Notes under the pieces: model-generated
The model's database searches: none
What the model was told of the DNA's origin: nothing
The model's input: only the letters and a program-made list of their open reading frames with translations
DNA from: a bacterium
GTDB lineage: Bacteria > UBA9089 > CG2-30-40-21
DNA: 55,768 nucleotides
NCBI GenBank assembly: GCA_018814245.1
Contig: JAHIZN010000456.1
Span: 1 to 55,768 of the forward strand
Direction of reading: 5' to 3'
Translations under genes and position numbers: made by a program
Shown: positions 1 to 55,768 of the stretch, piece after piece
Numbering within the stretch: position 1 is the first letter of the stretch
How the letters are laid out: each line of letters starts with the position of its first letter

Positions 1-3000
1 CCATACCCGCTGCCGCTTATGGTAACAATTGTACCAACCGTACCGGCTGTTGGCATGACACTGTATACTTCCGGCAGGATACAGAAGGTACCCGTTGCAA
101 CCGCTGTTGTACTACTTGCCGTAACAAGTGTTTCACCATAGCCCTGCATATCAACCGTAAATGTCGTGCTGAATGAGCCATTGTTACTGGCAAATGTTTG
201 TCTGATGCTGTTGTTTGTCCCAAAGGCTATGGTTACACTATCACTGTCCGCATAGCCGGTACCAGTCACAGTCACCACTGTGCCAACCGTACCACTGCCC
301 GGCATCACGCTGACAACCTGTGGTTGAATAACAAACAAATTGCCTGCCGCAGCCTTTGCACCATTCGCCGTAATGGTTGTCGTACCATACCGCTGTGTAT
401 CAACTGTAAACGCTGCGACAAACGACCCGTCCGTGTTTGCCGATACTATCTGAATGTTGGCATTTATCCCAAGGCTAACGGTTATGGTCTCGCTTGCTGC
501 ATAACCCGTACCAGCCACAGTAACCACTGTTCCTACCGTACCAAATTCCGGCACCACACTGGTAACCTCAGGCAGAACAAAGAATCGTGCCTCTGCCATT
601 GAATCGTCAACAGCCGCTACGGTTGTTGTCCCATAGGGTTGGGCACCTGCCACAAAGCTCGTACTAAACAGACCAGTATCATTGCTGAGACAAGTAGCCA
701 CACTCCTGACAGCACCAAAGTGGATGGTGATAAGATCCATGCTGCCAAACCCAAGACCATTTACCTCAACCGTTATTCCTATGGTACCGGAAGAGGGTGA
801 AATTATTACCCCGCCAATGATCTCAAACACATTCTGAGCAGATGAGGACTGCATACTAAAGGCATTGATTGTTGTCCTGCCAACTGTCTGCGTATCCACG
901 GTAAATACTGCCTCAAAATATCCCTTACCATCTGCAACAGCTAACTGAATATTAGCATTAGTTCCAAAACCTATTATTATTGCATCTGTTGCTGCATACC
1001 CTGTGCCCTTAATGGTCACCATTGTGCCGACTACACCTGAAGATGGTCGTACAGAGAAAACATCAGGATTGATAAAGAGGCTATTTGTTGCTGCCTCTAA
1101 CGATGTTCCCCTTGCTGTAATAAGTGTACTGCCAAAGCTCTGAGTATCAATTGTAAACACAGTGGTAAACGATCCATTTATACCTGCTGTTGCTGATTGA
1201 ATGCTTTCATTTGTCCCAAACGCAACAGACACTGCATCGACTGATACATAGCCTGTGCCGCTGATTGTTACCACCATACCAACCGTACCTGTTGTTGGTG
1301 TTACGCTATACACCTCAGGCAGGATGCGGAATATATTAATCGCCAAGCTCACACCGCTTGCAGTAATGGTTGTTGTCCCAAACACTTGTGTATCAATTGT
1401 AAATGTTGTAGAGAACCAGCCACAAGTATCAGCCGCTGCTGTCTGGATGGCAGCATTTGTTCCAAAGCCTACGGTTACCCCATCATTCGCTGCATAACCA
1501 TTACCATCAACGGTTACTATTGTCCCCACGCTGCCCGATGGAGGCATAATGCTGTACACCGCGGGCAGGATACGGAAGATATTTGTTGCCGCACTTACAC
1601 CGCTTACGGTAATGGTTGTCGTTCCAAACGATTGAGTATCAACCGTAAATGTAGTGGCAAATGATCCATTTATACCTGCCGCTGCCATTTGGATGTTGGT
1701 ATTTATCCCAAAGGCTATTGTTATACTATCATTTACAGCATAACCAGTACCTGCCACGGTCACCACCATCCCAACCGTACCAGTTGTCGGCATCACACTG
1801 ACAACCGCAGGCTCGATGAAGAATGTATTCCTGGCTGTGGTTGAAAGGGTACCCCTTGCCCTTATGGTTGTTGTCCCAAACGCTTGCGTATCCACCACAA
1901 AGGAGGCAGCAAATAAACCATTTATATCAGCATAAACCGATGAGGTAATATTGGTATTATTTCCAAACTCAAAGGACATCGGGTCATATTTCCCATAACC
2001 AGAACCATTGATTGTTACCTTGGTTCCAACCGTACCACTGGTTGGTGTAACGCTATAAACCTCTGGAATAATCATAAACAAATTCAGACTGGCCTCAGAG
2101 CTTACACCCGTGGCTGTGATCGTCTTTGTTCCATAAACCTGTGTATCCACAGTAAAGTCTAAGCTAAAGAACCCGCTTGCATTTGCAGTTATTGCAGCCA
2201 TGCCGGGTTTATTACCAAAGGCAACTATTATGGCATCACTCACCGCATATCCAGCACCAGCAATGCTTACCATGGTACCTACAGAGCCGATTGATGGTGA
2301 AACCATGAACAGGCTTGCCCTGACAATAAAGCGATTGGCTGATGATGAGATACCACTGGCAGTAATGGTTGTGGTCCCATACCTCTGGGTATCGATCGTA
2401 AATGTGGTACTGAATGATCCATACGAACCTGCTGCTGCTGTCTGTATAGTGGCATTATTCCCAAACGCTATCGTAATATTGTCACTTGCAGCATAACCTG
2501 TACCGGATATGGTCACCACTGTGCCTACTGTCCCTGTTGTTGGTGACACACTGACCACCTGCGGCAGAATAACAAACACATTGCCTGCCACAGCTACAGC
2601 ACCGCTGGCAGTAATCGTGGTTGTACCAAACACTTGAGTATCAATCGTAAAGGTTGTGGTAAACGATCCCCTGCTGCTTGCTGTTGCCTGCTTAATGCTC
2701 GAATTCAATCCAAAGGCAATGGTCACGGTATCACTCGATGCATACCCTGTGCCGGATATGGTCACTATCGTACCTACCGTAGCAGCCGTTGGTGTTACCC
2801 GCCAGATTTGCGGCTTGATAAAGAATGTTGTCGCTACATTAGTAACACCGGTTGCCTTCACCGTGGTTGTACCATATCCTTGAGTGTTGACCACAAACGC
2901 CGCACTAAATACCCCGTCAGCACTGCATGTTACGGTAGTAATACCAGTGGTCAAACCAAGGTCAATCCTTACCACATCATTTGCACCAAACCCTGAGCCA

Positions 3001-10200: not shown

Positions 10201-13200
10201 ATAAATGGTCTGGTCATGGTCACATTACTTTGTTTACCAGTAGCCCTGACGGTTGTAGAGCCACAGGATTGTACATCTATCGTAAATGTCGTACTAAATG
10301 CACCCTGATCCGTAGCCTTATTATTGGTATCAGACACAATCCCAATTGATGTTCCAAAGTCTATTCTGACACCCTCAAGACCACCATAACCACGACCCTC
10401 GACCACTACCTGACACCCAACCGTACCCATAGATGGTTCAATCTTTGTAATCTCGCCCTCAATATAGAATGGCACCTTAACTATCAGACCCTGATTATCT
10501 GCTTCTGACACAGTCACAAAGATATTTCCACCAGGCTGAGGTTCTGCATCATCAATCATAGCCGTAAATGTACCAAGCATTGATGTGTATGGGCTAAAAC
10601 CTGTATTCGGATCAACACCCCTCCACACATGACTGCCAAGATCTACCTCAATCAAAACAGTATCTGGATACACACTGTAACCATTCAGCGATGGCTCCCA
10701 ACCATCACCATTGATAATGATCGGCGTACCAATTGTACCCCGGGTTGGACTTATCGAGTATACCCTTGGAGTAAGCTTGAACCAGTCAATATCCATACGG
10801 TTGGATGTCTGACCTGTAGCAGTAATGGTCTTGCTACCATAGAATTGTGGATCACTAATGGTAAAGGTTGTAGAGAATTTGCCATTACCATCTGTCATGG
10901 GCTTGTTGATATTAATTGCTGTACCAAGGTCAATCTGAACATACTCGCTTGCATAATAACCTGCACCTTGCACGGTTACCACTGTACTCACTGGTCCTGA
11001 TGTCGGCTTGACCATGGTAATACCTGTAATAATAAAGAGCTGGTCATCCTTATCCCATGTATCTGTATCCTTTGCCCAAACAGTTATGCTGCCAGAGGCT
11101 TGAGTATCAACAAGGAAGGCAATACTAAAGCTGCCATTAATATCAGTATTACCGCCAGTTATTTCCAATGATGCACCAAAATCTATAACAATCAACTGCT
11201 CTCCACTAAACCCATTACCAAATACAGTAATCATAGCCCCAACCGTAGCTGAGTATGGAGAGATATAGGTAATAGCACCACGGATAAAGAAGCCTGTATC
11301 TGCCGGACACTTTGTTACCTGACCAGTACCCGTAATGGATTTATCCCCATAGACCTGCGTGTTTATGGTAAAGGTTGTACTGAATGTCCCTGACCAATCT
11401 GTGGTTACAAACCTGACAGATGGTGTAGTGCCAAAATCAATCCTTACCCTTTCATACAACCCATATCCAGTACCCTTAATGGTCACAATTGTTCCCACGG
11501 TTGCTGAAGTCGGCGTTACCCAGACCATCTGCGGGGTGATAAAGAACCTGTTTTCGGCTGCATGATTAGTATTTACACCAACTGCCTTGACGGTCTTTGT
11601 CCCATATACCTGAGTATCTATGGTGAATGTTGCTACAAATGTTCCTATATCTGAAGACTGCCCTGATGTAATATTGCTTGTTATGCCAAAGCTGACATTT
11701 ACGGTCTCATTTGCACCATATCCAGTACCGCTGATATTAACAGGTGTACCAACCGTACCTGTCGTTGGCACTACACTTACCACCTCTGGTGTAATACAGA
11801 ATACATTAACCGCTGAGGTTACACCACTGGCAATAATTGTTGTTGTGCCATACACTTGAGTATCAACTATAAAGCCGGCTGCAAATGAGCCATAATTGCC
11901 TACAACTGTGGTGGTTATGCTGACATTAGTACCAAACGCCACAGTAATAACATCGCTTGTCATATAACCGGTACCGCTAATAGTTACCATCGTGCCAACT
12001 GTGCCGGTTGAAGGCATCACACTAACAACCTGTGGTAAGATGCAGAAGCTATTGGTCGCTGAGCTTATACCGCTGGCTGTAATTGTAGTAGTTCCATAGG
12101 TTTGTGTATCAACCGTAAATATTGTGGTAAATGAGCCATATTGACCGGCAACTGTCGCATGGATGTTAACATTGGTACCAAAGGCAATATTCACAACATC
12201 ACCCGTTGCATAGCCTGTACCTGAAATCGTCACCACCGTGCCAACCGTGCCTGCTTGCGGCATTACGCTGACGACCTGCGGCAGAATGCAGAACACATTG
12301 ACCGCTGAGCTTACACCACTGACCGTAATGGTTGTCGTCCCATATTGCTGGACATCAACCGTAAACGCTGTGGTGAATGATCCATACTGCCCGGCGGACG
12401 CTTGCTGAATGCTGGCATTGGTGCCAAGGGCAATGTTCACAACATCATCCGCGCCGTAGCCTGTGCCTGAAATCGTAACATTTGTGCCAATCGTGCCTGC
12501 TTGCGGCATTACACTGACGACCTGCGGCTGAATACAGAACACATTAACCGCTGAGCTTACACCACTGACCGTAATGGTTGTCGTCCCATATTGCTGGACA
12601 TCAACCGTAAACGCTGTGGTGAATGATCCATGCTGACAGGCGGACGCTTGCTGAATGTTGGCATTGGTACCAAAGGCAATGTTCACAGCATCACCCGCGC
12701 CGTAGCCTGTGCCTGAAATCGTAACATTCGTACCAACCGTGCCTGCTTGCGGCATTACGCTGACGACCTGCGGCAGAATGCAGAACACATTAACCGCTGA
12801 GCTTACACCGCTGACAATAATGGTTGTCGTCCCATATTGCTGGACATCAACCGTAAACACTGTGGTGAATGATCCATGCTGACCGGCAATTGCTGTCTGA
12901 ATGTTGACATTGGTTCCAAAGGCAACAGTCACAGCATCACTTGCTGCATAACCATTGCCGCGAATGGTCACCACCGTACCAACCGTACCGGTTAAAGGTG
13001 ATACGCTGATCACCTGTGGCGAGATACAGAATATATTGACCGCTGAACCTACACCAGCAGCAATAATGGTTGTTGTACCAAATCGCTGAACATCAACCGT
13101 AAAGTTGGTGGTAAATGAACCCTGCTGGCTGGCAACTGTTGTGGCTCGGCTAATATTGGTGCCAAATGACACCTTAATATTATCATTAGCTGCATATCCG

Positions 13201-16200
13201 TTGCCGCTAATCGTTACCATCGTACCAACCGTGCCAATTGAAGGCTGAACGCTTACAACCTGAGGTGCGATGCAGAAGCTATTGACCGCTGAGCTTATAC
13301 CTCTGGCTGTAATGGTAGTTGTACCGTATCGTTGCATATCAACCGTAAATGAAGCTGTAAATGAGCCGTACTCATCGGCAACTGTGTTAGCTATGCTGAC
13401 ATTAGTACCAAACGCCACAGCAATACTATCCATTTCTGCATAACCTGTACCTTGAATGGTTATATTCATACCAATCGTACCAACTGAAGGCCGAACACTT
13501 ACAACCTGCGGCGTGATGAAAAATGTATTGACAGCCAAACCTGAACCACTAACAATAATGCTTGTTGTGCCATACGCCTGAGTATTAACCGTAAAGCTGG
13601 TTGTAAATGTCCCATCACTTCCGGCAATACCTGTGGCAATACTCTCTGTTCCGCCAAAGGAAACCTGTACAGACTCTCCTTGCCCATAGCCTGTACAACT
13701 AATCGTAACGATGCTGCCTACCGTACCCTGAGACGGTACAACACTTACCACCTCTGGCTCTATCCTGAACCATATTTGTGGTGACAGATTTGTTGTCTGT
13801 CCAATAGCAGTAATGGTCGTTGACCCAAACGATTGTGTATCAATATTAAATGTTGTTGAGAATATCCCCTCAGATGATGCTTGCGTCTCTGCTATCTCAG
13901 ATGTATGCCCAAGGTTTAATTTTATTATCTCCTCACTGCCAAACCCATTACCCTCTACGGTTACTGTTGTTCCAACCGTTCCATGTTCTGGTACAACGCT
14001 GGTAATCTTTGCCCCAACACCAAATACCCGGGTATATGGATGTTGTGTAATTACACCAGCAGCCGTAACCATCACGGTCAACACAGACTGCGGATTGGTA
14101 GTAAACACTGCGGTAAATGTACCCATTGCTGTGGACTGAGCAAGGACTATACTCTTGGTTGTACCAAAATCTATTCCTATATTCTCAAGCCCACCATAAC
14201 CATTACCCGTTATTGTTACGAATGTCCCAACCGTACCCTCTGTTGGGGTAATATCAATAGCTGTAATAATCTTAAACTCCTTGAAGCTGTTGATATAGTT
14301 ACCCGCATTCCTGCTTGTGGCAACCACACTCGTTGTCCCAAAACTTTGAGTATTCACGGTAAATATTGTTGTAAAGGTACCCTGACCGCTTGCCACAACC
14401 GTTGTCATGGTATTTGTAATACCAAGGCTGATTCGTACCGTATTTGTCCCGCCATACCCAGTGCCGCTAATGGTTACCAGACTGCCAACCGTACCGGTTG
14501 TCGGTATCACGCTGACAACATTTGGCAGGATGCGGAATATATTTGTTGCCACGCTCACACCACTTGCAATAATGGTTGTTGTACCATAGCGTTGTGTGTC
14601 AATTGTAAAGCTGCTGGTAAATGAGCCATAGTTACCGGCAACTGCCTGCTGAATACTAACATTGGTGCCAAAGGCAATGGTAACAACATCACCTGAGCCA
14701 TACCCTGTGCCTGAAATCATTACTATTGTGCCAACCGTGCCAGCTGTTGGCATCACGCTGATTACCTGCGGCAGGATGCGGAACACATTCGTGGCAACAC
14801 TTACACCGCTTGCCACAATCGTTGTTGTGCCAAACGCCTGAACATCAACCGTAAAGCTGCTGCTAAATGAGCCATCTATGCTCGCTGCTGCTGTCTGGAT
14901 ATTGGACTTGGTGCCAAAGGCAACAGTCACTACATCGCCCGATGCATAACCTGTGCCTGAAATTATTACTATTGTACCCACCGTGCCAGCTGTTGGCATC
15001 ACGCTCACAACCTGTGGCTGAATGCAGAATACATTCCTTGCCACACTCACACCACTTGATGTAATGGTTGTTGTCCCAAACGCCTGAACATCAACCGTAA
15101 ACGCTGTTGTAAATGAGCCCTGTTGACTGGCAACCGTTGTTTGGATGCTGGCATTAGTACCAAAGGCAACGCTCACAGCATCCCCCTCGCCGTAGCCTGT
15201 GCCTTCAATTGTTATCACTGTACCAACGCTTCCCTGTGCTGGTGTAACACTGAATACCTGCGGCAGAATGTGGAAGACATTGACCGCTGAGCTTACACCA
15301 CTTGATGTAATGGTTGTCGTTCCATACCGTTGGACATCAACCGTAAAGTTGGCAGTGAATGACCCCTGCTGACTGGCAACTGCTGTCTGGATGCTCGCAT
15401 TGGTACCAAAGGCAATGGTCACAGCATCACCTGCTGAATAACCTGTGCCTGAAATCGTTACCACTGTACCAACGCTTCCCTGTGGAGGCATTACGCTGAC
15501 AAGCTGTGGCTCTATTCGGAATACCTTCATCGGCTGTTGATTACTCTCCAGACCACAAGCTGTTACGGTCGTTGTCCCATAGATTTGAGTATTCACTGTA
15601 AACACTGCCGAGAATGTACCGGCAAGAGCTGCTTGTACCTGAGTTATACTCATGGTAGAACCAAGATCTATCCTGACCATTTCCTCGCCGCCAAACCCAT
15701 CACCAATAACAGTAACCAATGTCCCAACCGTTCCATGATCAGGTACAATGCTTGCAATCTTGGCACTTACCCCAAACAATCTTTGATACGGATACTGTGT
15801 GTTTAATCCTGTGGCTACAACTATTGACATCCCTGCCCGCTGTGGATTGCTCATAAATACTGTTGTAAATGTTCCCATAGCAGAGGTATGAGCAATAACA
15901 ACACTCTTTGTTGTTCCAAAGTCAATCTTTACATCCTCATCTGAGCCATAACCATCTCCGTTTACAACTACATATGTACCTACTGTACCCTCGCTGGGTG
16001 TGATGTAGATGGCTGTCGTAATCCTGAACCTATTGTATTGAGTAACCGGCATACCAGATTGATCCCTGCTGACAACGCTGGTAGCTGTTATACTTGTTGT
16101 CCCAAAGCTTTGCGTATCAACAGTAAACATAGCCGCAATCGTACCATTTTCAGATGTCTGTCCAATAACTATGCTTAATGTCTTGCCAAAGTCAATCCGT

Positions 16201-19200: not shown

Positions 19201-20663
19201 CCGGCATAACTGCTCATGGTTGTTGTCATGGAACTAATCTCGCCCAGACCTATCCTCACAGCCTCACTTTCTCCATAACCGTCACCAGCTACTGTTACAA
19301 GTGTCCCCACTGTACCAGATGTTGGTGTTACATTCACAATATGGGAGTAAATAATCACTATCCTTTGATTTGTCTCACCACTCCTTACACCAGTTACAAT
19401 TACAGTAGTTGTGCCAGCTGGTTGGACATTAACCGTAAAGGTTGCCTCAAAATACCCTGTGGACATTGTGGTTACCGTACCAATCGGTTTTGTCCAGCCA
19501 AAGTCAAGCCTCACCTGCTCACTTGAACCATAACCTGTGCCAGCAACACTAATCATTGTCCCAACCGTTGCCCTTATTGGTGTTATCCTGATAATCTCAC
19601 TGTAGATAACCATGCTGTCTGCGTCAAACCCAAAACTATCATTGGCAACAATACTTGCTGTCCCTGCCGGCTGTGTGTTCACCGTAAAGGTTGTTGAGAA
19701 TGAACCAGTCACATCTGTACTTGTATTATTGATCCCCTGTGTTGTCCCAAGGTCAACCCTTATTGGACAATTCCCCACAAACCCATTGCCCTTCAGGATA
19801 ATCATTGTCCCAACCGTTGCCCTTGTTGGTGTTACAAGCGTAATCTCCGGCACAATCACAAAGCCCTTAAGATCAACCTCATTGGTATTTAAGCCTGTGG
19901 CAATAATGGTAGTCATTCCTCTTGGCTGTGTATTAACCACAAATGTCGCTGCAAATGTACCAAATTCTGTTGTTTCAATACTGCCAATGGATGCTGTTAT
20001 CCCAAAGCCTATCTGTACAACCTCTCCTGCCCCATACCCATCACCATGAATACTAACCGTACTCCCAACCGTACCAGATGTTGGCACTGGCTGATATATC
20101 TTGGCATCAATATAGAATTGCTTATAAGCCTCTACCACTGTATCCCTGACCGTTACGGTTGTTGTTCCTGACACTTGGGTATCAACCACAAACATGGCTG
20201 TAAATGTTCCATAAGCTGTCGGTGCAATTGGTCCCTGAACATTCGGGCTTAGACCAAAATCAATCCAGAGATCATCATTATCCGGCATACCAGATGCCTT
20301 AATTGTTACTGGTGTACCTACTGTGCCTGTTGTTGGAGTAATTGCGACCACCTCAGGCAGTATCATCAAATAGCCAATACCCTTTTCAGGTGTCGCAGTA
20401 CCAACACCAGTAATCGTTCTGATGCCATAAGCCTGCTCATCAACAATAAAGGTTACCACAAATGAGCCGTCTGCATTACTGCTTGTCCCGGCAATCGATT
20501 GATTTGTCCCAAAGATGATATTAATGCTATCATTTGCCGCAAATCCATCACCATCAATGGTAATTACTGTCCCTACTGTTGCTGCCTCTGGTGTTACCCA
20601 TGCAATATGTGGAAGGATAACAAACGATGTTGACAGCGAGACACCAGATGGTATGCTTGTTAC
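1..20663 (-). CDS. Literal open segment 2 of the giant gene (C-proximal part). It has 6,887 codons from just after TAA (complement of 20664-20666) to the left window edge. No stop is reached, so the 3' end lies outside the window.
   Basis: The main frame resumes the repeat register at 20639 (SLSTSFVILPHIAWVTPEAATVGTVITIDGDGF...). It was verified at every F-x-V-D and G-x-V-G motif down to position 36. The first in-frame GTG is at about 20459 and the first ATG at about 20370, where a gene caller might place an artificial start. Confidence 0.8.
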
Positions 20664-23600
20664 CTTAACAGTAGTTGTGCCATAAACTTGAGTATTAATT
20701 ACAAACGGTGCGGCAAATGAGCCGTTATCACCAGAGAATACTTGAGTAATCGTACCGGTTGTGCCAAAATCAACGATGATAACCTCACCAGATGGATAAC
20801 CAGTGCCCCAAACCATGGCCACCTGTCCTACTGTTCCGGCACCAGGTGTTACACCAATCAAAGGCATAATGGTAAAGCTGTTTGTTGCTGACTGATTTGA
20901 ATTTAGACCCAGAGCAGTAATTACTGTCTGCCCTATTGGCTGTGAATCAATCATAAAGCTTGCTGCAAACCGGCCATCACTGCTTGACTCAAATATGGGT
21001 ATATCATTGTTTGTCCCAAAGGTAATCCATAATGATTCACTGACACCATACCCATTACCAGCTACCGTTACCATTGAGCCTACTGTACCTGATAATGGCG
21101 AAACCATAGTAATATTTGATATAATATTAAATGCTGCCCAACTGACATTATTTGATACACCACCTGTGGCTGCAATCGTTCGGATACCGCAGGGCTGGAC
21201 ATCAACCGTAAATCCACTATTAAACACACCCATACCATTTGCCTGAACTATTGAGATACTTCTTGTCCAGCCAAAGGCAATCTCAATGGTCTCACTTGGC
21301 AGATAGCCATTACCCGTTAGATTAATTGTTGTCCCCACCGTACCCGTGGTTGGAGAATACTCTGCAATCTTGCTTGTAATCAGGAAGCTGTTAGCAAATA
21401 CCTGTTTAGAGTTTATTCCAGTTACGGTTATGGTTGTCCTGCCGGCTGGCTGCACATCAACACTAAAGGCTGTGGCAAATGTCCCGCGATCATTGGTATT
21501 TGCTGTCATAATGGATGCGGTTGTTCCAAAGTCAACCCTGACACACTCCATATAACCCCATCCATTACCGCTGACAGCTATCATCTGCCCAACCGTCCCA
21601 GAAAGCGGTGAGATAAAGGTTTGCGGTATAATACCAAACACACAAATAGCCACCCTAACCGGGCTGCCGGCACTAAGACCCGTGCCAATAATGGTTGTTG
21701 TGCCATAGCCTTGAGTATCAACCGCAAAGACTGACTCAAAGCTGCCAACACTATTTGCATAGACCGTGGCTATGGGCTTTAACGACCCAAAGTCAACCCT
21801 TACTCGCTCATTCGCCCGATACCCGGTGCCACTTACGGTTACCATTGTTCCAATCGTACCCATACTTGGTGTAATAACTACCTTGGGTGTAATAATAAAG
21901 TAACCATAATCAACACACCCCGTAGAAAGCCCGGCAGCAGTGATGGTCTTGGAGCCAAAGAACTGCTCTGTAGTCGTAAACACGGCGATAAATAATCCAT
22001 TCTGTCCAACCGTCACCTGCGTAATGGTTGGGGTTGTGCCCAAGCCAATAGACACTGTTTCACTGCTGCCATAGCCATTACCCCTCAGCTCAACCTGACA
22101 GCCAACCGTACCATTGTTTGGTGTTACAAGTATAATCCTCTGGGTAATAACAATCTTCTGAATGCCTGATAGTCCTGACTTCATCCCCAATACCTGAACG
22201 GTTGTTGTTCCATACGATTGAGTATCAATGGTAAATACAGCACTAAACACACCGGCATTAGCCTGAACCGTGGCAATCATCTGGCTTGTACCAAAGTTTA
22301 CTCTCACCATCTCTGTGGCATTATAACCATCACCATTGACTGATACATAACTGCCTACCGTACCACTCGATGGACTGATAGCAGCAATTCGAGCCTTGAC
22401 CAAGAAGGTAGATTCCTTACTCTCAGCTGTATTTGCCCCGCGGGCTGTAATCGTCTTTGTTCCGCCGGGTTGTGCCCTGACCATAAACACAGTCGTAAAG
22501 CTGCCAGCATTATCCGTCTTAACCTGCGACTCTGGATAAACATCAAAGTATATGCTTACATCCTCTCCTTGTCCATATCCATTGCCAAGCACGGTTATTA
22601 TGGTTCCAATGGTACCATCTTTTGGCGAAACATCTGTAACATTCCCACGGATAAAGAAGCTGCCATACCTTGGAATCCTTGAGCCTGTTCCCTCAGCTAC
22701 AACTGTTGTTGCCCCATAAACATGGGTATCTATGGTAAAGTCTGCCACAAAGGCACCGCTGTTATCGGTTGAGACAACTGCCCGGCTAACATAATTGCCA
22801 AAGTCAACCCTGATGACCTCACTTGCCCAATAACCGCTGCCGCATACCCTTACCATTGACCCAACCGAGCCCTGTAATGGTGTTACAGCATCCATCCTTG
22901 GTACAATAGTAAACACCCTGGTTGAATCCATTTCACCTGAGGTCATGCCATAGGCAGTTACTGTTTTTGGACCGCTTGGCTGGGTATCAATGGTAAAGGT
23001 AAACCCAAACACACCATCACTTGAAACAATACCCATACACCTGGTTATGGTATCACCCAGGCTAATCCTGATATCCTCGTTTGCCTCATAGCCATTACCA
23101 TTGATAAATACCGCTGTTCCCACCGTACCATCAACTGGTGTCATGGACAGGACATTAGCCTTGATATAGAACCCGCCGATCAGATCCTGCGGAGACTCTG
23201 AGGCAATTACCTCAACTGTGGTTGTGCCTGCTGCCTGGGTATTAATTGTAAAGCATGTTGTAAACTCACCGCAAGTGTTTGCATTTGTATTAATTATTGA
23301 CTGAGTACCAAAGAGGAACTCAATTCTTTCATCTGCTGTAAACCCATTACCCGTTACCGTAACTATACTCCCAACCGTACCAAACGACGGCACAATATTC
23401 GTAATATTGCCCTTAACAAGTAAGCTGTCTGTCTCTGTCGCCTGACTATCTATGCCTGTAGCCACCACACTGGCCACACCATAAGGCTGAATATCAATGG
23501 TAAATGTCTGCTCAAACCCGCCGCGATAATCTGTTACCACATTGGTTCTGCTCGTTGTCAGGCCAAAGTCTATCCTCACTATCTCGGAAGCTGCATAGCC

Positions 23601-26600: not shown

Positions 26601-29600
26601 AAAGGCAGCGGTAAATGTACCCATACCGCTGACAATAGTATTCCCAATGCTTTGGGTTGAGCCAAACTCAAGCTGTATCTGCTCACTCGCACCATAACCA
26701 TTACCAAGGATATTTACCCTTGTCCCAACCGTTCCCCTATCTGGTGTAACAAAGGTAACATTTCCATGGATGTACAGGGTTGTTAAGGCTGAGATACCGG
26801 TATTTTCTTTTGCCAAAACAGTGGTTGTGCCGCAGACTTGAGTATCAATGGTAAATATGGTGCTGAAGAGACCATTGTTGTCGGTCAATACGCTGGCTAC
26901 ACTCGGTGTCAGACCAAAGCTTATATTTACCGGTTCTCTATAGGAAAATCCTTCCCCATTAATCTGCACAACCCTGCCCACTGTACCGCTTGTTGGTGTC
27001 ACAAAGAGCTTACCGGTTATAACAAATATCGACTCTGCCCTTTGACCAGAATCTGCCCCTTCAGCAACTATGACGACATTTCCTGCCGGCTGGGTATCAA
27101 CCGTAAAGGTTACTGTAAATGAACCATCCTCTGATGTTACCCTTTCACACATGCTTCGACTCATGCCAAAGTCAACCCGAATCATCTCTAACTCATCAAA
27201 CCCATTACCAGAAACCGTAACTACTGTCCCCACGGTACCTGTATTGGGTGTTACCTGCCAGATGCTGGACCAGATGTTGGCATAGATATTCACACCGCTG
27301 TTCGCTGATTCCTTACTTATCCTGCCAATAGCCTCCACGGTCGTTGTCCCGCATTTCTGGGTATCAACCGTAAATACTAAGCTGAATAATCCGGTACCAT
27401 CTGTTTCAACCGTTCTGATGGGTAACCTCTTGCCAAGATTAACATCAATGGGCTCACTGGCACCATAACCATTGCCAAACAAGTTAATTGGCGTACCAAC
27501 CGTTGCCCTTACTGGTGACATGCTGATTATATTGCTGAAGATAACAAACCTTGAAATGCTTGACTCGTTGCTTTCCATACCGCTTACCATCACTGTTGTT
27601 GTGCCGCAGCTCTGAGTATTAATGGTAAAGCTGGCCAAAACCTTGCCATAGATTGAAGAGGTTACAATGGCAATGGATGCCGTTGTCCCAAAATCAAGCC
27701 TTACCTGCTCAGCATTACCATACCCTGTCCCAAGAACAATAACCACTGTTCCCACACTGCCGCTGGATGGTGTTACCTGAACAACACTGGAAACTATGGT
27801 AAAGCCATTGGTTGGTCTAACCTTAGAGATTAACCCATAGGCACCTATCTCTGTCTCACCGCATTCTTGAGTATCAACCACAAAGCTCGTTCTGAACACA
27901 CCATCTGCAAATGCTGTTGTCTGGGTAATCCCATACTTCAAGCCAAAGTCAATCCTGACACCCTCGCCTGACTGATACCCGCGACCCTCAATACTAACAA
28001 TCGTACCAACCGTACCGATTGTTGGGGTAACAATTACTATTTCAGGTACAATGGCAAAGTATGTATATGCATACTCATTGCTTGATAGTCCTGTGGCAGC
28101 CACTGTATTTGAACCCATGGGCTGGGTATCGGTAGTAAAGGTGATGTCAAATGAGCCGTATCCATCGCTCAAACAAGAAACAAGGCTCATGGTTTTGCCA
28201 AAGTCAATCCTTACCGTTTCGCTTGCACCATAGCCATTAGCCTTAACATTGATAACTATGGTCGCATAACCCTCTGTTGGTGTGATGTCAATGATATTGG
28301 CAAATATTCTGAACGGCCTGTCGTCTGTATCGCCTGTTGCCATACCAGTAATCACAATCGTCCTTGTGCCGGCGGCTTGCGTATCAACGGTAAAGGATGC
28401 ACTAAATACGCCGTCATTATTTACATCAGCCATTATTCGGGTAACCGTTGCCCCAAAATCAACCCTGACCGTTTCACTTGCACCATAACCATTACCAGTC
28501 ACGCTGACGAGTGTACCCACAGAGCCAATTGTTGGGGTAACCATGGTAATCTCACCACAGATACGGAACTGATACATACCGCTTAAGCCGGATGTATCAC
28601 TTCTTCCGGTAATCGTTACCGTACCTGATGGCTGAATGTCAACAGCAAATGTCGTGGCAAAGCTGCCCATTGCAGAGACTGACTTGGCTAATTTGATGTT
28701 TGCTGTCCTGCCAAAGCTGATATATACCTGATCCCCGCCAGCATAGCCATTGCCAAATACATTAATTGTTGTGCCAACCGAGCCGGTCTTTGGTGTAATA
28801 TCGTAGATAGCTGGCAGAATGAATATATTGGTTGTATCATAACACGATGCACTCCTTGCCGTAACCGTGGTTGTCCCTAACATTTGAGTATCAACTGTAA
28901 ATGGAATGTTAAATATTCCGTCTGCCTGTGGATAACCAGTGGTAATGGCATTGGTCAATCCAAAGTCAATGGTTATCTCTTCATCTATTGCATATCCTGT
29001 GCCACTGACAGTAATGATACTGCCAACTGTTGCCTGTACAGGTGTAATCCCGATAATCTCACCAATGATAACAAACTTATTCCTGCTGATTAGTCCGCTG
29101 CTGACCCCTGCAGCCGTAATGGTTCTTGTGCCCTGAGGCTGGGTGTCGGCTGTAAGAACAGCGACAAATGCACCATTAGTACCAACTGTGGTTGAGGTAA
29201 TGGATGTTGTCCAGCCAAAGTCAACACTTATCACCTCTCCGGACTGATACCCTTGACCAGAAACCGTTACCAGAGTGCCTACTGTACCAGATGGTGGTAT
29301 AACGCTGTACATCTCTGGCTCAATGTAGAATACATTGCTGGCACTGCTTACACCATTGGCAGTAATGGTTGTTGTGCCGAAGCGTTGTGTGTCAACCGTA
29401 AAGCTGGTGGTAAATGAGCCGTGCTGGCTGGCTGCTGCTGTCTGGATGTTCGCATTGGTGCCAAACTCCACAGTTACCACATCACCTGCTGCATAACCTG
29501 TGCCGCTAATCGTTACCACTGTGCCAACGCTGCCGGATGCCGGCATGACACTGACAACCTGTGGGGTGATATTAAACATATTGCTTGCTGAGCTTATGCC

Positions 29601-32600
29601 TTTGGCAGTAATAGTTGTTGTACCATACGCCTGTACATCAACCGTAAACGCTGTTGTAAATGAACCCTGCTGGCTGGCAACTACTGTCTGGATGGTGGCA
29701 TTGGTGCCAAAAGCAACAGTTACCACATCGCTTGCTGCATAACCTGTGCCGATGATCGTTACCACTGTGCCAACCGTACCTGTTGGAGGTACAACGCTGA
29801 CAACCTGCGGCAGGATATTGAAGACATTGACCGCTGAGCTTACGCCGCTGGCTGTAATGGTTGTTGTGCCATACCGCTGTACATCAACCGTAAAGCTGGT
29901 GGTAAATGAACCCTGCTGGCTGGCAACTACTGTCTGGATAGTGGCATTGGTGCCAAAAGCAACAGTTACCACATCGCTTGCTGCATAACCTGTGCCGATA
30001 ATCGTTACCACTGTGCCAACCGTACCTGTTGGAGGTACAACGCTGACAACCTGCGGGGTAATGAAGAAGTTGTTGATTGCTGAGCTTACACCGCTGGCAA
30101 TAATCGTGGTTGTCCCATACGATTGTACATCAACCGTAAATAAAGTGGTAAATGAGCCGTGCTGACTGGCAACCGCTGTCTGGATGCTCGCATTGGTGCC
30201 AAACGCCACAGTTACCGCATCACCTGATGCGTAACCAGTGCCAGCCACAGTCACCACCGTGCCAACGCTGCCTGTCGTTGGTACTACACTGACAACCTGC
30301 GGTGTGATGAAGAAGCTATTGACCGCTGAGCTTACACCCTTGGCAGTAATGGTGCATGTCCCATACCGCTGAACATCAACCGTAAACGCTGTTGTAAATG
30401 ACCCATGCCCACTGGCAGTTGCTGTCTGAATACTCGCATTGATGCCAAACGCAACAGTAATGCTATCACTCGCCGCATAACCTGTGCCGCTGATCGTCAC
30501 CACCGTGCCCACCGTGCCAGTCGTCGGTACAACGCTGACCACCTGCGGCTGAATGTTAAACACATTGACCGCTGAGCTTACGCCATTGGCAATAATGGTT
30601 GTCGTGCCATACCGCTGGACATCCACCGTAAAGGAATCGGTAAATGAACCATACTGGCTGGCAATTGCTGTCTGGATGCTCGCATTGGTGCCAAAGGCAA
30701 TGGTCACCACATCACCAGCTGCATAACCTGTGCCTGAAATCGTTACCACTGTGCCCACCGTACCGATTGGAGGCACAACCGTGATCACCTGAGGCAGAAC
30801 ATGGAAAATATTGACCGCTGAGCTTATGCCGCTTGCAGTAATGGTTGTCGTGCCATACGACTGGACATCAACCGTAAAGCTGGTGGTAAATGAACCATGC
30901 TGACCGGCAACCGCTGTCTGTATGCTCGCATTGGTACCAAATGCCACAGTCACCACATCACTGTCTGCATAACCTGTGCCTGAAATCGTTACCACTGTGC
31001 CAACTGTTCCGACCGCTGGCATCACGCTGACAACCTGTGGCAAGATGTTGAATACATTCATGGCAACACTCACACCGCTTGCCGTAATCGTTGTTGTACC
31101 AAACGACTGGACATCAACCGTAAACGCTGTCGTAAATGACCCATGCTGACTGGCAATTGCCGTCTGAATGCTAACATTGGTTCCAAAGGCAACGCTCACA
31201 GCATCGCTTGCTGCATAACCTGTGCCTGAAATCGTTACCACTGTACCAACGCTTCCCTGTGTTGGTGACACACTGACTACCTGTGGGATGATGTTGAACA
31301 TATTGCTTGCACTGCTTACACCATTTGCCGTAATGGTTGTTGTTCCGTACTGCTGAACATCAACCGTAAAGCTGGCTGTAAATGAGCCATATATACTTGC
31401 TGCTGCTGTCTGGATAGCGGCATTGGTGCCAAAGGCAACGGTTACAGCATCACTCACGCCGTAGCCTGTGCCTGAAATCGTTACCACTGTACCAACCGTA
31501 CCGATTGATGGCACAACCGTGACCACCTGTGGCAGAATGAGGAATGCATTTGTGGCAACACTCACACCACTTGCCGTAATGGTTGTTGTGCCATATGCCT
31601 GTACATCAACCGTAAAGCCGGCCGTGAATGACCCATATGTACTTGCTGTTGCTATCTGGATGGTGGCATTGGTGCCAAAGGCAACGGTTACCACATCGCT
31701 TGCTGCATAACCTGTGCCTGAAATCGTTACCACTGTACCAACCGTACCGATTGGAGGCACAACCGTAACAACCTGCGGCAGAATGCAGAAAATATTTGTG
31801 GCCACACTGGCACCACTTGCCGTAATGCTTGTTGTCCCAAACGCCTGGACATCAACCGTAAAGCTGGCTGTAAATGAGCCATGTTGACTGGCAATCGATG
31901 TCTGGATAGTGTCCTTAGTGCCAAAGGCAACGCTCACAGCATCACTTGCTCCGTAGCCTGTGCCTGAAATCGTTACCACTGTGCCAACACTTCCCTGTGC
32001 TGGTGATACGCTAACTACCTGCGGTGTAATAAAGAAGCTATTCACTGCTGAGCTTACACCCTTTGCAGTAATGGTTGTTGTACCAAAGCGTTGTACATCC
32101 ACCGTAAAGCTGGCTGTAAATGAGCCGTGCTGACTGGCAATCGCTGTCTGGATAGTGGCATTGGTGCCAAAGGCAACGCTCACAGCATCACTTGCGCCGT
32201 AGCCTGTGCCTGAAATCGTTACCACTGTGCCAACACTTCCTTGTGCTGGTGCCACGCTAACTACCTGCGGTGTAATAAAGAAGCTATTCACTGCTGAGCT
32301 TACACCCTTTGCAGTAATGGTTGTTGTACCAAAGCGTTGTACATCAACTGTAAAGCTGGTGGTAAATGAGCCGTATTGACTGGCAATTGTCGTCTGGATA
32401 GTGGCATTGGTACTAAAAGCAACAGTGATATTATCATTAGCTGCATAGCCTGTGCCTAAAATCATTACCACCGTGCCAACGCTTCCCTGTGTTGGTGTAA
32501 CACTGACTACCTGTGGTGTAATGAATATGGTATCTGTATCAACATCAGCCGCCTCAGCCAGCACCGTTGTCGTACCATAAACTTGCGTATCAATAGTAAA

Positions 32601-53600: not shown

Positions 53601-55768
53601 CTCAATGGTTGTTGTCCCTGAAATCTGTGTATTGATTAGGAAGCTGGCACTGAATGTTCCACCATATGCCTTGATTGGTGATGGGTTAGTTGTAATAATA
53701 CCAAGTATCCCCAGATTGATACTGATTGATTCTGCCTCAGAATATCCATCACCCCAAATCGTTATCCTTGTTCCAACGGTACCTGTTGTTGGTGATACCT
53801 GCCATAGTCTGGCTACAAGCTTGAGCAGCCTTGAATCGCTCCTGCCTGAATCAAGCCCTGCTGCTATCACGGATCTTGTTCCATAGGTTTGGGTGTCAAT
53901 CGTAAATGTTGTGGTAAATGAGCCATTTGCATCTGTTGTTGTCTCACCTATGACTGTGGTCATGGTTGTTCTGTTCCCATAGCTTATCTTAATAGTTTCA
54001 CTTGCTCCATATCCATTGCCGCTGATGGTTATCTGTGTGGTTACTGAGCCAATGGTTGGGGTCATATTTGTTATCACTGATGATATATTGAATACATCCT
54101 CAAATACACGACCGCTTGTCAGCCCTGTTGCCATGACTGTCTTTGTGCCGTAGACCTGCAGATCAACAGTAAAGCTGGAGGTAAATAAACCGCTGTCATT
54201 TGTTGTGACTGTGGTGATTGTCGCATTATTCCCAAATGTTATGTGTATATCCTCATTTAGCCCAAACCCATTGCCATTGACAGTTACCATCGTTCCCACT
54301 ATCCCGCTCTTTGGTGTGTAGTTGTAGAAGTTGGGCAGTATGGATAGTGTTCCCTTAGCATTAGTTGTGTCATCATAGGCTGTGATGGTTGTTATCCCAC
54401 AGATTTGTGTATCTATTGTAAATATAGCGGTGAATGAGCCGTTTGCTTCTGCTGTGGTTGTGGTTATGGCTGTATTTGTACCAAGCTCTATCCTGATACC
54501 CAAGCCTGTCCCAAACCCATTGCCTCGAACAGTTACTATTGTTCCCACACTGCCGGTGTTGGGTAGGATGGAGATGATGTTGGGCAGGATCTGGTATGTT
54601 CGCTCAACATTCCTTAAGCTGACATTACCTATGGCTGCTGCAGTTACTACTCCATAACTCTGCGTATCTACCGTAAATGTTGTGCTGAATGAGCCTTCGC
54701 TTGAGGCACTGGTTGTCCTGATGCTTGTATTGCTTCCAAACTTGATCCTTACCAACTCGCTGTCACCATATCCGTCACCGGCTATGCTTACCATGGATCC
54801 CACTGTTCCGGAAACAGGGGTAAATGCAATTATCTGTGGATCAATGACAAACACATTAGCAGCTGAGGTTACACCTGATGCTGTAATGGTTGTTGTACCA
54901 CATGGTTGGGTATTGACAATAAATATGGTGGATAATGTCCCCATGCTGTTTGTGGTGGCATAGGTTATGCTTGCATTCCTGCCAAACCCTATGGTAACAC
55001 TCTCACCTGCTGCAAAGCCATCTATCCAGATGGTAACAACCGTCCCCACAGGTCCCTTGACTGGTGAAACAAGAGTCATCTTGGGCAGGATGAAGAATGG
55101 TCGACTAACCACCTTATCAGATACATCCAATCCTGTTATGGTTATGGTTGTAGTGCCATAGGGCTGCTGATTAACGGTAAACCCAACAACAAATGAACCA
55201 TTTGTTCCAGCCAAAATATTAGGCCATGCGGTAGAACCAAACCCAACAGCAAGTAACTCTGTAGAACCATACCCATTACCACTAACAGTTACAAGTGTTC
55301 CTACTGTGCCCATGCTTGGTGTAACGCTATACACATTTGCCAGTATCGTAAATACTCCTCCGGCTGTACACGGCTGTATTCCGTTATACGCCGTTACGCT
55401 GGTTGTCCCAAAGGCTTGCGTGTCTACAGTAAATACTGCGGTAAACGAGCCGTTATTTGCTGATGTGATTGTGGTTATGGTTGCATTTCCGCCAAACGCC
55501 ATTCGTATCGCATGGCTTGTCCCAAACCCATTGCCTTGAATGGTTACCATTGTGCCAACGCTGCCCTCTGTGGGCGAGATGGCGATGATGTTTGGTGTGA
55601 TACAGTATGTAAATGTTCCTGCCTCTATGCTGTTGTTGTCATCATAGGCAGTGATGGTCTTTGTCCCATAGCTTTGGGTGTCAATGATAAAGGCTGCGGT
55701 AAATGAGCCGTTTACTGCTGAGGTTGTCCATGTTATGGTTGAATTGTTGCCGAATTTCACCCTGATGG
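1..55768 (-). CDS. Giant tandem-repeat protein made of about 218 IPT/TIG-like (Ig-fold) modules. Internal fragment, partial at both ends. Conceptual translation is 18,588 codons once one +1/-1 indel pair near 20.6-20.9 kb is corrected.
   Basis: Complement strand translated by hand. Representative unit complement(29745..29990) = GYAASDVVTVAFGTNATIQTVVASQQGSFTTSFTVDVQRYGTTTITASGVSSAVNVFNILPQVVSVVPPTGTVGTVVTIIGT. The F-x-V-D type motif (plus-strand atc-aac-cgt-aaa and variants) occurs 218 times. Its spacing is 246-297 nt and always a multiple of 3, except around 20.6-20.9 kb. The G-T-V-G-T motif (plus tgt-acc-aac-cgt-acc and variants) occurs once per module. In every module but one, both motifs have codons starting at plus positions divisible by 3. 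The phase is the same at both window edges (right edge IRVKFGNNSTITW..., left edge ...TIVTISGSGYG). No gene start or stop was seen. The family call rests on motif resemblance to IPT/TIG domains, not on a database search. Confidence 0.85.
5100..5590 (-). repeat. Two-unit island of the homogenised 246-nt family, embedded in diverged modules.
   Basis: F-x-V-D motifs at 5155, 5401 and 5647 are spaced exactly 246 nt. Positions 5341-5430 are about 89% identical by eye to 31055-31144, which lies 26 kb away in the largest array. Confidence 0.65.
11600..13760 (-). repeat. Array A: nine F-x-V-D motifs spaced exactly 246 nt (82 aa), made of homogenised tandem units. Boundaries are good to about 100 nt.
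   Basis: Motifs at 11617, 11863, 12109, 12355, 12601, 12847, 13093, 13339 and 13585. Unit 12241-12486 versus 12487-12732 shows about 15 mismatches in 246 nt. The 85-nt run 12301-12385 is repeated exactly at 12547-12631. Confidence 0.85.
13760..14300 (-). repeat. Spacer cassette copy 1: two atypical 85-aa modules following array A.
   Basis: Translation: ...IITAIDITPTEGTVGTFVTITGNGYGGLENIGIDFGTTKSIVLAQSTAMGTFTAVFTTNPQSVLTVMVTAAGVITQHPYTRVFGVGAKITSVVPEHGTVGTTVTVEGNGFGSEEIIKLNLGHTSEIAETQASSEGIFSTTFNID... It is colinear with copy 2 at 15540-16120. Confidence 0.7.
14300..15530 (-). repeat. Array B: five F-x-V-D motifs spaced exactly 246 nt, same family as arrays A and C.
   Basis: Motifs at 14353, 14599, 14845, 15091 and 15337. 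A 47-nt exact match (15438-15484 = 31215-31261) links it to array C. Confidence 0.8.
15540..16120 (-). repeat. Spacer cassette copy 2, homologous to 13760-14300.
   Basis: Translation: ...RITTAIYITPSEGTVGTYVVVNGDGYGSDEDVKIDFGTTKSVVIAHTSAMGTFTTVFMSNPQRAGMSIVVATGLNTQYPYQRLFGVSAKIASIVPDHGTVGTLVTVIGDGFGGEEMVRIDLGSTMSITQVQAALAGTFSAVFTVN... It has the same order and the same unusual F-x-x-N-P-Q and FGV-x-AKI-x-S-x-VP-x-HGTVGT features as copy 1. Confidence 0.7.
16120..18800 (-). repeat. Array E: eleven F-x-V-D motifs spaced exactly 255 nt (85 aa). This subfamily has F-Y-I-x-P-E-V/I-x-S-V-T-P linkers and a Cys two residues before G-Y-G.
   Basis: Motifs at 16117, 16372, 16627, 16882, 17137, 17392, 17647, 17902, 18157, 18412 and 18667. 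Examples: TFYIMPEVVSITPISGTVGTMVSVTCSGYG, NIFYITPEVISVTPSLGTVGTFVIIRCSGYG, FYITPKILGVTPIMGTVGTIVTVGCDGYG, YCIIPEIISVVPNIGTVGTDVTITCSGYG, FFILPAIVSLTPNKGSVGTRVTVDCTGYG. Confidence 0.75.
20594..20950 (-). other. Frame-displaced repeat module. It forms a 118-codon ORF in the adjacent frame (TTG at 20950-20948 to TAA at 20596-20594). Positions 20639-20938 encode a fully normal IPT/TIG-like module.
   Basis: Hand translation in the frame with codon starts equal to 2 mod 3: (M)IHKPIGQTVITALGLNSNQSATNSFTIMPLIGVTPGAGTVGQVAMVWGTGYPSGEVIIVDFGTTGTITQVFSGDNGSFAAPFVINTQVYGTTTVKVTSIPSGARCQHRLLSFHILHG*. All family motifs are present (P..GTVG, GTGY, FG, GSF, F-V-I-N-T-Q-V-Y-G-T-T-T). The ORF is bounded upstream by TGA (complement of 20951-20953). 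It is not listed in the supplied ORF track. Confidence 0.8.
20784..55768 (-). CDS. Literal open segment 1 of the giant gene (N-proximal part). It has 11,660 sense codons from the right window edge to an in-frame TGA (complement of 20784-20786). The 5' end lies outside the window.
   Basis: Main frame checked at every module motif from 55681 down to 20947. After the extra base at about 20939 the main frame reads ANRADSNYCSGSKFKSVSNKQLYHYAFDWCNTWCRNSRTGGHGLGHWLSIW and then stops. An automated gene caller would probably end a CDS here. Confidence 0.8.
29100..32780 (-). repeat. Array C: fifteen F-x-V-D motifs spaced exactly 246 nt. This is the largest and most homogenised tandem array in the window.
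   Basis: Motifs run from 29146 to 32590 in steps of exactly 246. Positions 29656-29810 versus 29902-30056 show 2 mismatches in 155 nt. The 92-nt run 32008-32099 is repeated exactly at 32254-32345. Confidence 0.85.

Follow-up and report, generated by a model that had tools for sequence, protein, structure and literature searches.

Giant adhesins built of tandem immunoglobulin-like (Ig-like) repeats are known from the type I secretion system (T1SS), and include SiiE of Salmonella with 53 BIg domains, MpIBP of Marinomonas with ~120 identical 104-aa repeats, and LapA. SprB of Flavobacterium johnsoniae is a protein of ~6,500 aa with a type-B C-terminal domain (CTD; TIGR04131). It is a gliding adhesin of 669 kDa secreted through a type IX secretion system (T9SS) (PMC9127263). 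Here we describe a 55,768-nt stretch of bacterial DNA (contig JAHIZN010000456.1), referred to as the window, i.e., the whole stretch that was analysed. The window lies wholly within one bacterial gene, which fills it without a break, and includes neither end of that gene. It is probable that this is an internal piece of a real giant gene, which encodes a chain of Ig-like domains that is exported by Sec and a T9SS-like system and acts as an acidic surface fibre or adhesin. West-Roberts et al. (2023) class products of at least 10,000 aa as large and those of at least 30,000 aa as giant. The open reading frame (ORF) of the window, with 18,588 codons and no stop, exceeds the first threshold, while an ortholog in a sister species, whose two contigs are joined via the window to at least 30,190 aa, would exceed the second.

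The resemblance of the gene product to the T1SS adhesins is limited to a generic tandem-Ig architecture. Like SiiE, MpIBP and LapA, it is a predicted linker-less rod of tandem Ig-like β-sandwich domains with an acidic composition, but it possesses 4-8 times more domains. In contrast to MpIBP, there is no homogenisation of the repeats, which are old (39% identity) and conserved one by one. BIg or RTX matches to Pfam and NCBIfam were found neither in the window nor in the orthologous C-terminus, and the N-terminal retention module of T1SS adhesins was not found.

Giant genes of the Archaeovorin and Dockerin types, encoding up to 85,804 aa, have been reported from Candidatus Omnitrophota; in these, numerous transmembrane regions are combined with SecA-DEAD domains and enzymes into multi-domain mosaics, and their genes adjoin those of the type II secretion system (T2SS) (10.1101/2023.11.21.568195). 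Within the Planctomycetota-Verrucomicrobiota-Chlamydiota (PVC) group, proteins of >30,000 aa are reported only for Omnitrophota, and Desantisbacteria, T9SS and Ig-like arrays are unmentioned in that report (10.1101/2023.11.21.568195). The present gene shares with the Omnitrophota giants the size class, the occurrence as whole-contig genes in fragmented assemblies, the origin in uncultured groundwater or PVC-neighbouring lineages, and a proposed function in cell-cell attachment. It differs in having a single repeated Ig-like domain and a T9SS-type context; transmembrane and enzyme domains were found neither in the 30.2k aa of the ortholog nor in the 18.6k aa of the window, for which Pfam reports TIG only.

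The closest conceptual relatives are the single-domain giants, in which the Oscillospiraceae RCC1-type genes, SwmB of Synechococcus and eukaryotic titin are grouped (10.1101/2023.11.21.568195). As in these proteins, one domain type extends along nearly the full length, and the logic of an extracellular or structural fibre and growth by tandem duplication are shared. The Ig-like E-set fold predicted here nevertheless differs from the propeller blades of the RCC1-type giants, which also belong to a different lineage, and titin is intracellular and mixes Ig and FnIII domains with a kinase. The giants of Chlorobium chlorochromatii CaD3, with 36,805 and ~25,000 aa (10.1101/2023.11.21.568195), are of comparable size, occur in a diderm bacterium and contain repeats implicated in attachment to a partner cell. 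Unlike the present gene product, they hold haemagglutinin, fibronectin and toxin-like domains and a peptidase, and no sequence relationship to the unit was found in the searches run. The locus therefore belongs among the known giant repetitive surface-fibre genes, as a record-class member rather than a separate kind.

The open frame and its repeat unit

The minus-strand frame at window:3-55766, with codons at plus-strand 3k..3k+2, contains 0 stops in 18,588 codons when the reverse complement is translated at offset 2; the remaining five frames contain 485, 626, 1107, 1247 and 1696 stops. From the base composition of the window ~1,080 stops are predicted, and the probability of finding none is ~1e-483. 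The encoded product has a mass of 1.93 MDa and a pI of 4.7, and is high in Thr, Gly, Val, Ile and Ser. As the first and last repeat units are cut by the window edges, the gene runs on past both ends. A model reading of the letters that preceded this analysis (the original prediction) had proposed a single giant gene filling the window with both ends absent, and this proposal is borne out by the stop-free frame, 219 gapless domains, purifying selection and a longer ortholog; the many in-frame stops that it had named as contrary evidence are not seen. It had also stated that the gene is hidden from the list of ORFs, as is the case: the listed ORFs are all ≤230 aa, and the giant one is missing because ORFs running off both ends go unlisted. 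The 300-nt exception to the frame that it had claimed is absent: positions 20664-20786 lie in an ordinary in-frame unit, unit 137, that contains no stop.

A hidden Markov model (HMM) built from the window's own sequence resolves the product into 219 consecutive domains of 82-104 aa (mode 85), which tile it with no gap >15 aa. The unit consensus is nIvsVtPtsGTVGTvVTisGnGYgasEtvridFGttasIttttasanGsFtttFTVDTQpYGTTTItAtG. In an aligned sample of units P8 and G49 are invariant, and G11, G14, G23, G35, F51, F55, Q60 and G63 are found in ≥90% of units. Pairwise amino acid identity among units has a median of 39%, and most units have no paralog that is >60% identical to them. Judged from this divergence, the copies are old, and the array would have arisen by ancient tandem duplication with a few recent local expansions of an 82-aa unit. 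The exception to the old copies is a young subfamily with an 82-aa/246-nt unit, which occurs at three blocks and is scattered in 75-5819 (Table 1).

The AlphaFold2 (AF2) model of a single unit, predicted with the paralogs as alignment, is a seven-strand β-sandwich with a pLDDT of 93.6. The model of three units (pLDDT 95.7, pTM 0.84) further shows adjacent units without a linker, the last strand of one passing directly into the first strand of its neighbour. The top Foldseek match of the single-unit model is domain D of cyclodextrin glucanotransferases (CGTase; TMq 0.65), which we take to be an E-set/IPT-type domain; a profile search of the sequences in the Protein Data Bank (PDB) also matched CGTase domain D (E 0.0014). 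The three-unit model matches the tandem-Ig proteins SiiE (2yn3/2yn5, E ~1e-7), invasin and Bap. The predicted seven-strand fold is that of the Ig-like E-set type expected of an IPT/TIG domain.

Pfam TIG (PF01833) scores 143 bits (E 2e-42) on aa 1-5000 of the window product, where four of ~59 units are matched individually, and Pfam reports no family for aa 5001-10000 or for two further segments of 400-500 aa. The expectation of many IPT/TIG hits thus held for four stretches in the first 5,000 aa and failed in the next 5,000. The family-level link to PF01833 is real, yet most units are too divergent for that model. Because the predicted structure matches E-set domains while Pfam TIG is mostly blind to the unit, the unit is best assigned to a divergent E-set/IPT-like family. 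This identification rests on structure prediction and Foldseek; Pfam, NCBIfam and PDB sequence searches were mostly blind. The proposed Ig/IPT-like surface-fibre type is supported by the Ig-like AF2 fold and the tandem-Ig matches in Foldseek, for a domain that has diverged from Pfam TIG.

A linker-less chain of such β-sandwich domains would form a stiff beads-on-a-string rod. The 53 domains of SiiE extend over ~175 nm, roughly 3.3-4 nm per Ig-like domain. By analogy with this figure, the 219 units of the window would span an estimated ~0.7-0.9 µm, and 356-450 units ~1.2-1.8 µm.

The collinear ortholog and selection on the array

A pattern scan with the alignment of the young subfamily led to a GTDB-representative metagenome-assembled genome (MAG), 'bacterium isolate Yes70-11' (JASEHA01). 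Its two longest contigs, JASEHA010000001.1 and JASEHA010000002.1 (NODE_1 and NODE_2), hold an ortholog that is collinear with the window unit for unit at ~79% nucleotide and ~77% amino acid identity. In NODE_1 (57,225 bp, 19,075 aa) and NODE_2 (33,347 bp, 11,115 aa) one frame is open from the first to the last base, with 0 stops vs 673-1,516 in their other frames. Both are made solely of units, with 223 and 133 copies, respectively, and no gap >20 aa. Residues 1-13,436 of the window product align with aa 6,475-19,075 of NODE_1, and residues 13,600-18,588 with aa 1-5,003 of NODE_2. The window bridges the break between the two contigs, which lies in a young block at ~14.5-15.5 kb, with a gap of only ~165 aa. 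The ortholog reaches 6,474 aa before the first residue of the window and 6,112 aa after the last. NODE_1 and NODE_2 are joined via the window, and the gene of the sister species therefore encodes no fewer than 30,190 aa, without either of its ends having been reached.

Comparison with the ortholog gives a dN/dS of 0.225 overall and of 0.13-0.30 across all 44 segments of 425 aa, at a dS of ~0.7. These ratios show purifying selection on every part of the array, which is maintained unit by unit.

Two readings would deprive the open frame of its meaning. According to one, the assembler strung together or multiplied the copies of a much shorter repeat gene, and the 55.8-kb ORF exists in no genome. 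The sequence is indeed wholly repetitive at the protein level, neighbours in the young 246-nt blocks reach 94% nucleotide identity, and the block at 29319-32516 holds 13 units vs ~3 in NODE_1 (~42628-43330), ~10 more, because copy number has either truly changed fast or been collapsed in the MAG assembled from short reads. Most units, however, are ~39% identical with a best paralog of ≤60%. No exact direct repeat is longer than 92 nt, so the assembly is not intrinsically ambiguous; a 77-mer is repeated at only 25 positions. The assembly of a different species keeps the unit order across all 55 kb at 79% nucleotide identity, and a dN/dS of 0.23 with positional orthology is not expected of an artefact. 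The concatenation scenario, against which the original prediction had cautioned, is excluded by the old copies, the short exact repeats and the collinear ortholog, save for the copy number of the young 246-nt blocks. An artefact is very improbable, and is already refuted for the overall structure with the exception of copy number within these blocks.

The other reading regards the array as a decaying relic, a pseudogene-like repeat expansion that is open by chance or composition and from which no protein is made. Its size is extraordinary for a probably small genome. This has to be set against the vanishing probability of a stop-free frame (~1e-483), a dN/dS of 0.13-0.30 in 44 of 44 segments at a dS of ~0.7, structural core residues that are kept in ≥90% of units, confident AF2 models, and the conservation of even the odd unit 177. 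The reading deserves hardly any credence, less than an artefact, and the pseudogene is effectively ruled out by the selection analysis. Because the units follow one another in the same order in an independently assembled genome of another species and selection acts throughout, artefact and pseudogene are both excluded, and the frame is best read as an internal piece of a real giant gene.

Unit 177 is the sole strongly divergent unit. Its canonical first strand (PRVYSISPTRGTIGTPIIINGDGW) is kept, and the remainder is remodelled with insertions. It is 78% identical to its positional ortholog, aa 1413-1516 of Yes70-11 NODE_2, and because of this conservation it is considered a maintained variant domain; it may possibly be a functional site within the rod.

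Table 1. Coordinates of the features in the window (positions of the whole 55,768-nt stretch).
Feature	Position	Strand	Basis and remarks
Internal fragment of giant gene, 18,588 codons, 219 tandem Ig-like units, without start or stop	3..55766	-	Stop counts, HMM domains, dN/dS
Unit 1, cut by window edge, matched at HMM positions 30-79 only	55596..55766	-	HMM; ortholog (NODE_1) has 6,474 aa ahead
Unit 219, cut by window edge, first 24 aa only	3..74	-	HMM; ortholog (NODE_2) has 6,112 aa beyond
Young expansion block, units 91-103, 13 copies of 82-aa/246-nt unit	29319..32516	-	Nearest copy 82-95% aa identical; local GC up to 0.51
Second young-subfamily block, units 165-172	11790..13757	-	Neighbouring units up to 94% nt identical
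Third young-subfamily block, units 158-161	14526..15509	-	Short-read assembly of ortholog breaks here (NODE_1/NODE_2)
C-terminal-side region, units 196-218, 82-85 aa, many young-subfamily members	75..5819	-	HMM, paralog identity
Unit 177, sole strongly divergent unit, 104 aa	10458..10769	-	HMM 18 bits (mean 80), best paralog 36%
Unit 137, normal in-frame unit, holds 20664-20786	20613..20867	-	HMM, 67 bits

The first 425 aa of the window product are only 57% identical to NODE_1, vs ~77% elsewhere. We also note that another Yes70-11 contig, NODE_225 (4,307 bp, coverage 58x vs ~24x), matches the N-terminal side of the window at 53737-54080 and 55266-55762, where the order is non-collinear, and has a stretch of 106 nt in common with NODE_1 (21098-21203). 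The pattern of NODE_225 and the low identity of the first 425 aa suggest a collapsed multi-unit segmental duplication or a variable region at the upstream edge of the window or just ahead of it.

No tRNA, Rfam family or other embedded feature was found in the window. GC skew is negative in all 2-kb plus-strand bins over 1-55768, which makes the coding strand G-rich throughout; this may reflect co-orientation with replication or merely the codons of a Gly/Val/Thr-rich protein.

Gene termini in relatives and a putative export route

The putative termini are seen on contigs of relatives, not in the window. Two contigs bear a start, NODE_64 of Yes70-11 and a contig from the Joint Genome Institute (JGI), which are mutually 78-80% identical at the nucleotide level. 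In both, a TTG codon is preceded by a GGAG Shine-Dalgarno motif and opens a signal peptide (MDGKPKHFILILIAAFMLIGSVITASA, followed by TV), after which the units begin at once and run to the contig end. The N-terminus, in which the signal peptide was judged by eye, reads MDG(K/R)PK.FILILIA...TASA and then TVTIT before the units. In NODE_64 a run of N occurs shortly after the gene start.

Four contigs bear an end, i.e., NODE_33 of Yes70-11, one from JGI, one from the European Nucleotide Archive (ENA) and one of Candidatus Desantisbacteria, and in each the ORF is truncated at the contig edge. Three of them hold 8-12 units at the truncated edge, and the Desantisbacteria contig begins inside the region that follows. 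This region consists of ~1,760 aa of a second, ~115-aa repeat and is followed by a conserved C-terminal domain. The motif of the second repeat, PVLSW.G..GYE.DGV.P..G....F.F.V.YTD.D...P..GYPKV.I ... YSYKFEA.D (NODE_33, ~1859-6790), is conserved in four assemblies, and has no Pfam or NCBIfam match. The C-terminus in NODE_33 scores 23.6 bits against TIGR04183 (cut-off 23), the type-A sorting domain of T9SS, and also matches the CTDs of PorU (E 8e-12) and PorZ; its last 110 aa are conserved in the four assemblies. Directly downstream lies a gene for an outer-membrane protein of the PorV/PorQ family (NF033709, 141 bits against a cut-off of 90). Its orthologs are 74-84% identical and have the same position elsewhere. 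A left-truncated huge ORF followed by PorV is observed in four assemblies. Smaller proteins of the same organisms combine the Ig-like unit with β-helix, cohesin or dockerin modules and a Por_Secre_tail CTD.

The genes around the termini are also of interest. Directly upstream of the giant-gene start, at 572-2500 in NODE_64 and 2787-4751 in the JGI start contig, lies a gene for a protein of 643-655 aa with IPT/TIG domains (PF01833, E 2e-21) that is conserved in both species. Beyond the PorV/PorQ gene (9554-15426 in the ENA contig, 10108-11220 in the JGI end contig), genes for a response regulator, a GAF-HD protein resembling a c-di-GMP phosphodiesterase, a CHASE2 histidine kinase and a TMEM260-like/TPR protein are present; this may possibly be a regulatory and glycosylation neighbourhood for a Thr-rich fibre.

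From these contigs the following route can be proposed. The gene would start with a Sec signal peptide directly followed by the units, and would end with the second repeat type (~1,760 aa) followed by a T9SS CTD of type A, with the PorV/PorQ outer-membrane gene alongside. Sec export would bring the protein to the periplasm, from where the CTD and PorV would direct it through a T9SS-like translocon across the outer membrane. The protein would then be displayed as, or released as, a ~micrometre-long acidic surface fibre, which would probably serve to attach the cell to minerals or to partner cells, or to space it from them. Like SprB (PMC9127263), it would be a very large, repetitive, β-rich surface filament with a Sec signal peptide, a T9SS CTD and a PorV-family shuttle, the CTD and PorV/PorQ being found here at the orthologous gene end. 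Unlike SprB, the CTD match is of type A (TIGR04183), a single Ig-like unit is used, the length is ≥18,588 aa in the window itself and ≥30,190 aa as judged from the ortholog, and the organism lies outside Bacteroidota.

Several observations weigh against this account. Both gene termini lie outside the window, and the window-end sequences were unmatched in genome, metagenome and viral contig collections (one degenerate pattern was used for both ends; the pattern works on the window). The contigs with a start (NODE_64 and that from JGI) and those with an end (NODE_33 and those from JGI, ENA and Desantisbacteria) are unjoined to NODE_1 and NODE_2, and could thus be parts of another gene in which this domain is also present. 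Since Pfam PF18962, CHU_C and FlgD_ig all score below their cut-offs and TIGR04183 just passes, the match to a CTD is a marginal one. T9SS is described as restricted to Bacteroidota or the Fibrobacterota-Chlorobiota-Bacteroidota (FCB) group (PMC7463736, PMC12398890), and the largest T9SS cargo noted in the literature checked is SprB with 669 kDa (PMC9127263), which is several-fold smaller. Copy numbers of the young 246-nt block also differ, and so one of the two assemblies may misstate copy number.

Consequently, it may be asked if the gene is real and giant but no T9SS substrate, the terminus contigs being derived from smaller paralogs and the product using another export or anchor, such as T1SS-type (as SiiE, MpIBP and LapA), T2SS-associated (as proposed for the Omnitrophota giants) or membrane-anchored. 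Three points keep such an alternative viable: array and termini are unlinked, the CTD scores only marginally, and T9SS is viewed as specific to the FCB group (PMC7463736, PMC12398890); moreover, paralogs do exist, as the same domain is present in many proteins of 600-1,750 aa of these organisms. However, the scan of Yes70-11 gave exactly one start-bearing and one end-bearing contig with the domain, at coverages of 16-25x that are similar to those of NODE_1 and NODE_2. The truncation of the end-bearing contigs at the contig edge, in three cases after 8-12 units, is as expected of the fragment of a very long array, and no RTX, T1SS or transmembrane feature was seen in the 30,190 aa of the ortholog or in the window. 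Taken together, we consider the alternative unlikely and prefer export of the giant protein by Sec and a T9SS-like system.

A length of ≥30,000 codons is probable for the full gene, and one of ~40,000 is possible. The larger figure takes into account the other fully open contigs of Yes70-11, NODE_59 (3,240 aa) and NODE_225 (1,435 aa, about twice the coverage). With NODE_64 as the start and NODE_33 as the end, the fragments NODE_64, NODE_1, NODE_2, NODE_59, NODE_225 and NODE_33 sum to 39.4k aa. No suffix-prefix overlaps were found among the Yes70-11 contigs, whose sole shared stretch is the 106 nt of NODE_225 and NODE_1. That these six fragments form one gene of ~40,000 codons (~118 kb, ~4 MDa, at least 450 Ig-like domains), of which the gene in the window is the counterpart, is a tentative proposal that we hold to be rather doubtful.

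Distribution and significance

The best protein matches are fragments annotated 'hypothetical protein, partial', of 0.5-1.7k aa on 2-5 kb contigs, from groundwater Candidatus Desantisbacteria MAGs; these are 36-44% identical on paralogous units and 60-67% at apparent positional orthologs. These best hits make it probable that Candidatus Desantisbacteria are the relatives of the bacterium that carries the gene. The protein collection searched does not contain the sequence of the window itself. MAG AAB296 alone contains ~19k aa of such fragments (summed by hand), and public MAGs hold the gene only as dozens of them. This suggests that the giant gene is a feature of the lineage that has been shattered by short-read assemblies. 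When 1.84 billion representative proteins were searched with a profile, the unit domain was found in arrays that reach 26 units (4,177 aa) in close relatives and 75 weak stretches (7,284 aa) in distant ones. The Yes70-11 MAG is unmentioned in the Yessentuki aquifer paper (PMC11708057), and no paper linking Desantisbacteria with T9SS was found.

Two further contigs extend this distribution. JACQXV010000080.1 (5,397 bp), labelled Candidatus Woesearchaeota archaeon, has one fully open frame and is 72-75% identical at the nucleotide level to 53097-55754 of the window; it is apparently a piece of the giant gene of the bacterium, mis-binned into an archaeal MAG. DYDG01000063.1, a MAG contig of Marinifilum sp. 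(Bacteroidota), encodes a unit that is 63% identical to the young-subfamily consensus, a hint that classical T9SS-bearing bacteria may share the domain or have exchanged it.

Genes of >10,000 codons are rare, and those of >30,000 codons have been reported from very few lineages. Given the length of at least 30,000 codons in the sister species, the gene is among the largest prokaryotic genes seen, and it adds a Desantisbacteria-related lineage with a different architecture, in which one Ig-like domain is repeated hundreds of times. The window is the piece which shows that two whole-contig ORFs of a public MAG form one gene. The unit-by-unit conservation (dN/dS 0.23, no homogenisation) offers a natural data set on why hundreds of near-equivalent domains stay intact. 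If the T9SS link is true, it raises the question of how a multi-megadalton all-β chain crosses two membranes, and of the taxonomic limits of T9SS. If a single gene of ~40,000 codons exists, it would be the longest single-domain tandem array known in prokaryotes and a T9SS-type cargo ~six times the size of SprB in a lineage outside the FCB group, and its product would be a 1-2 µm fibre, longer than its own cell.

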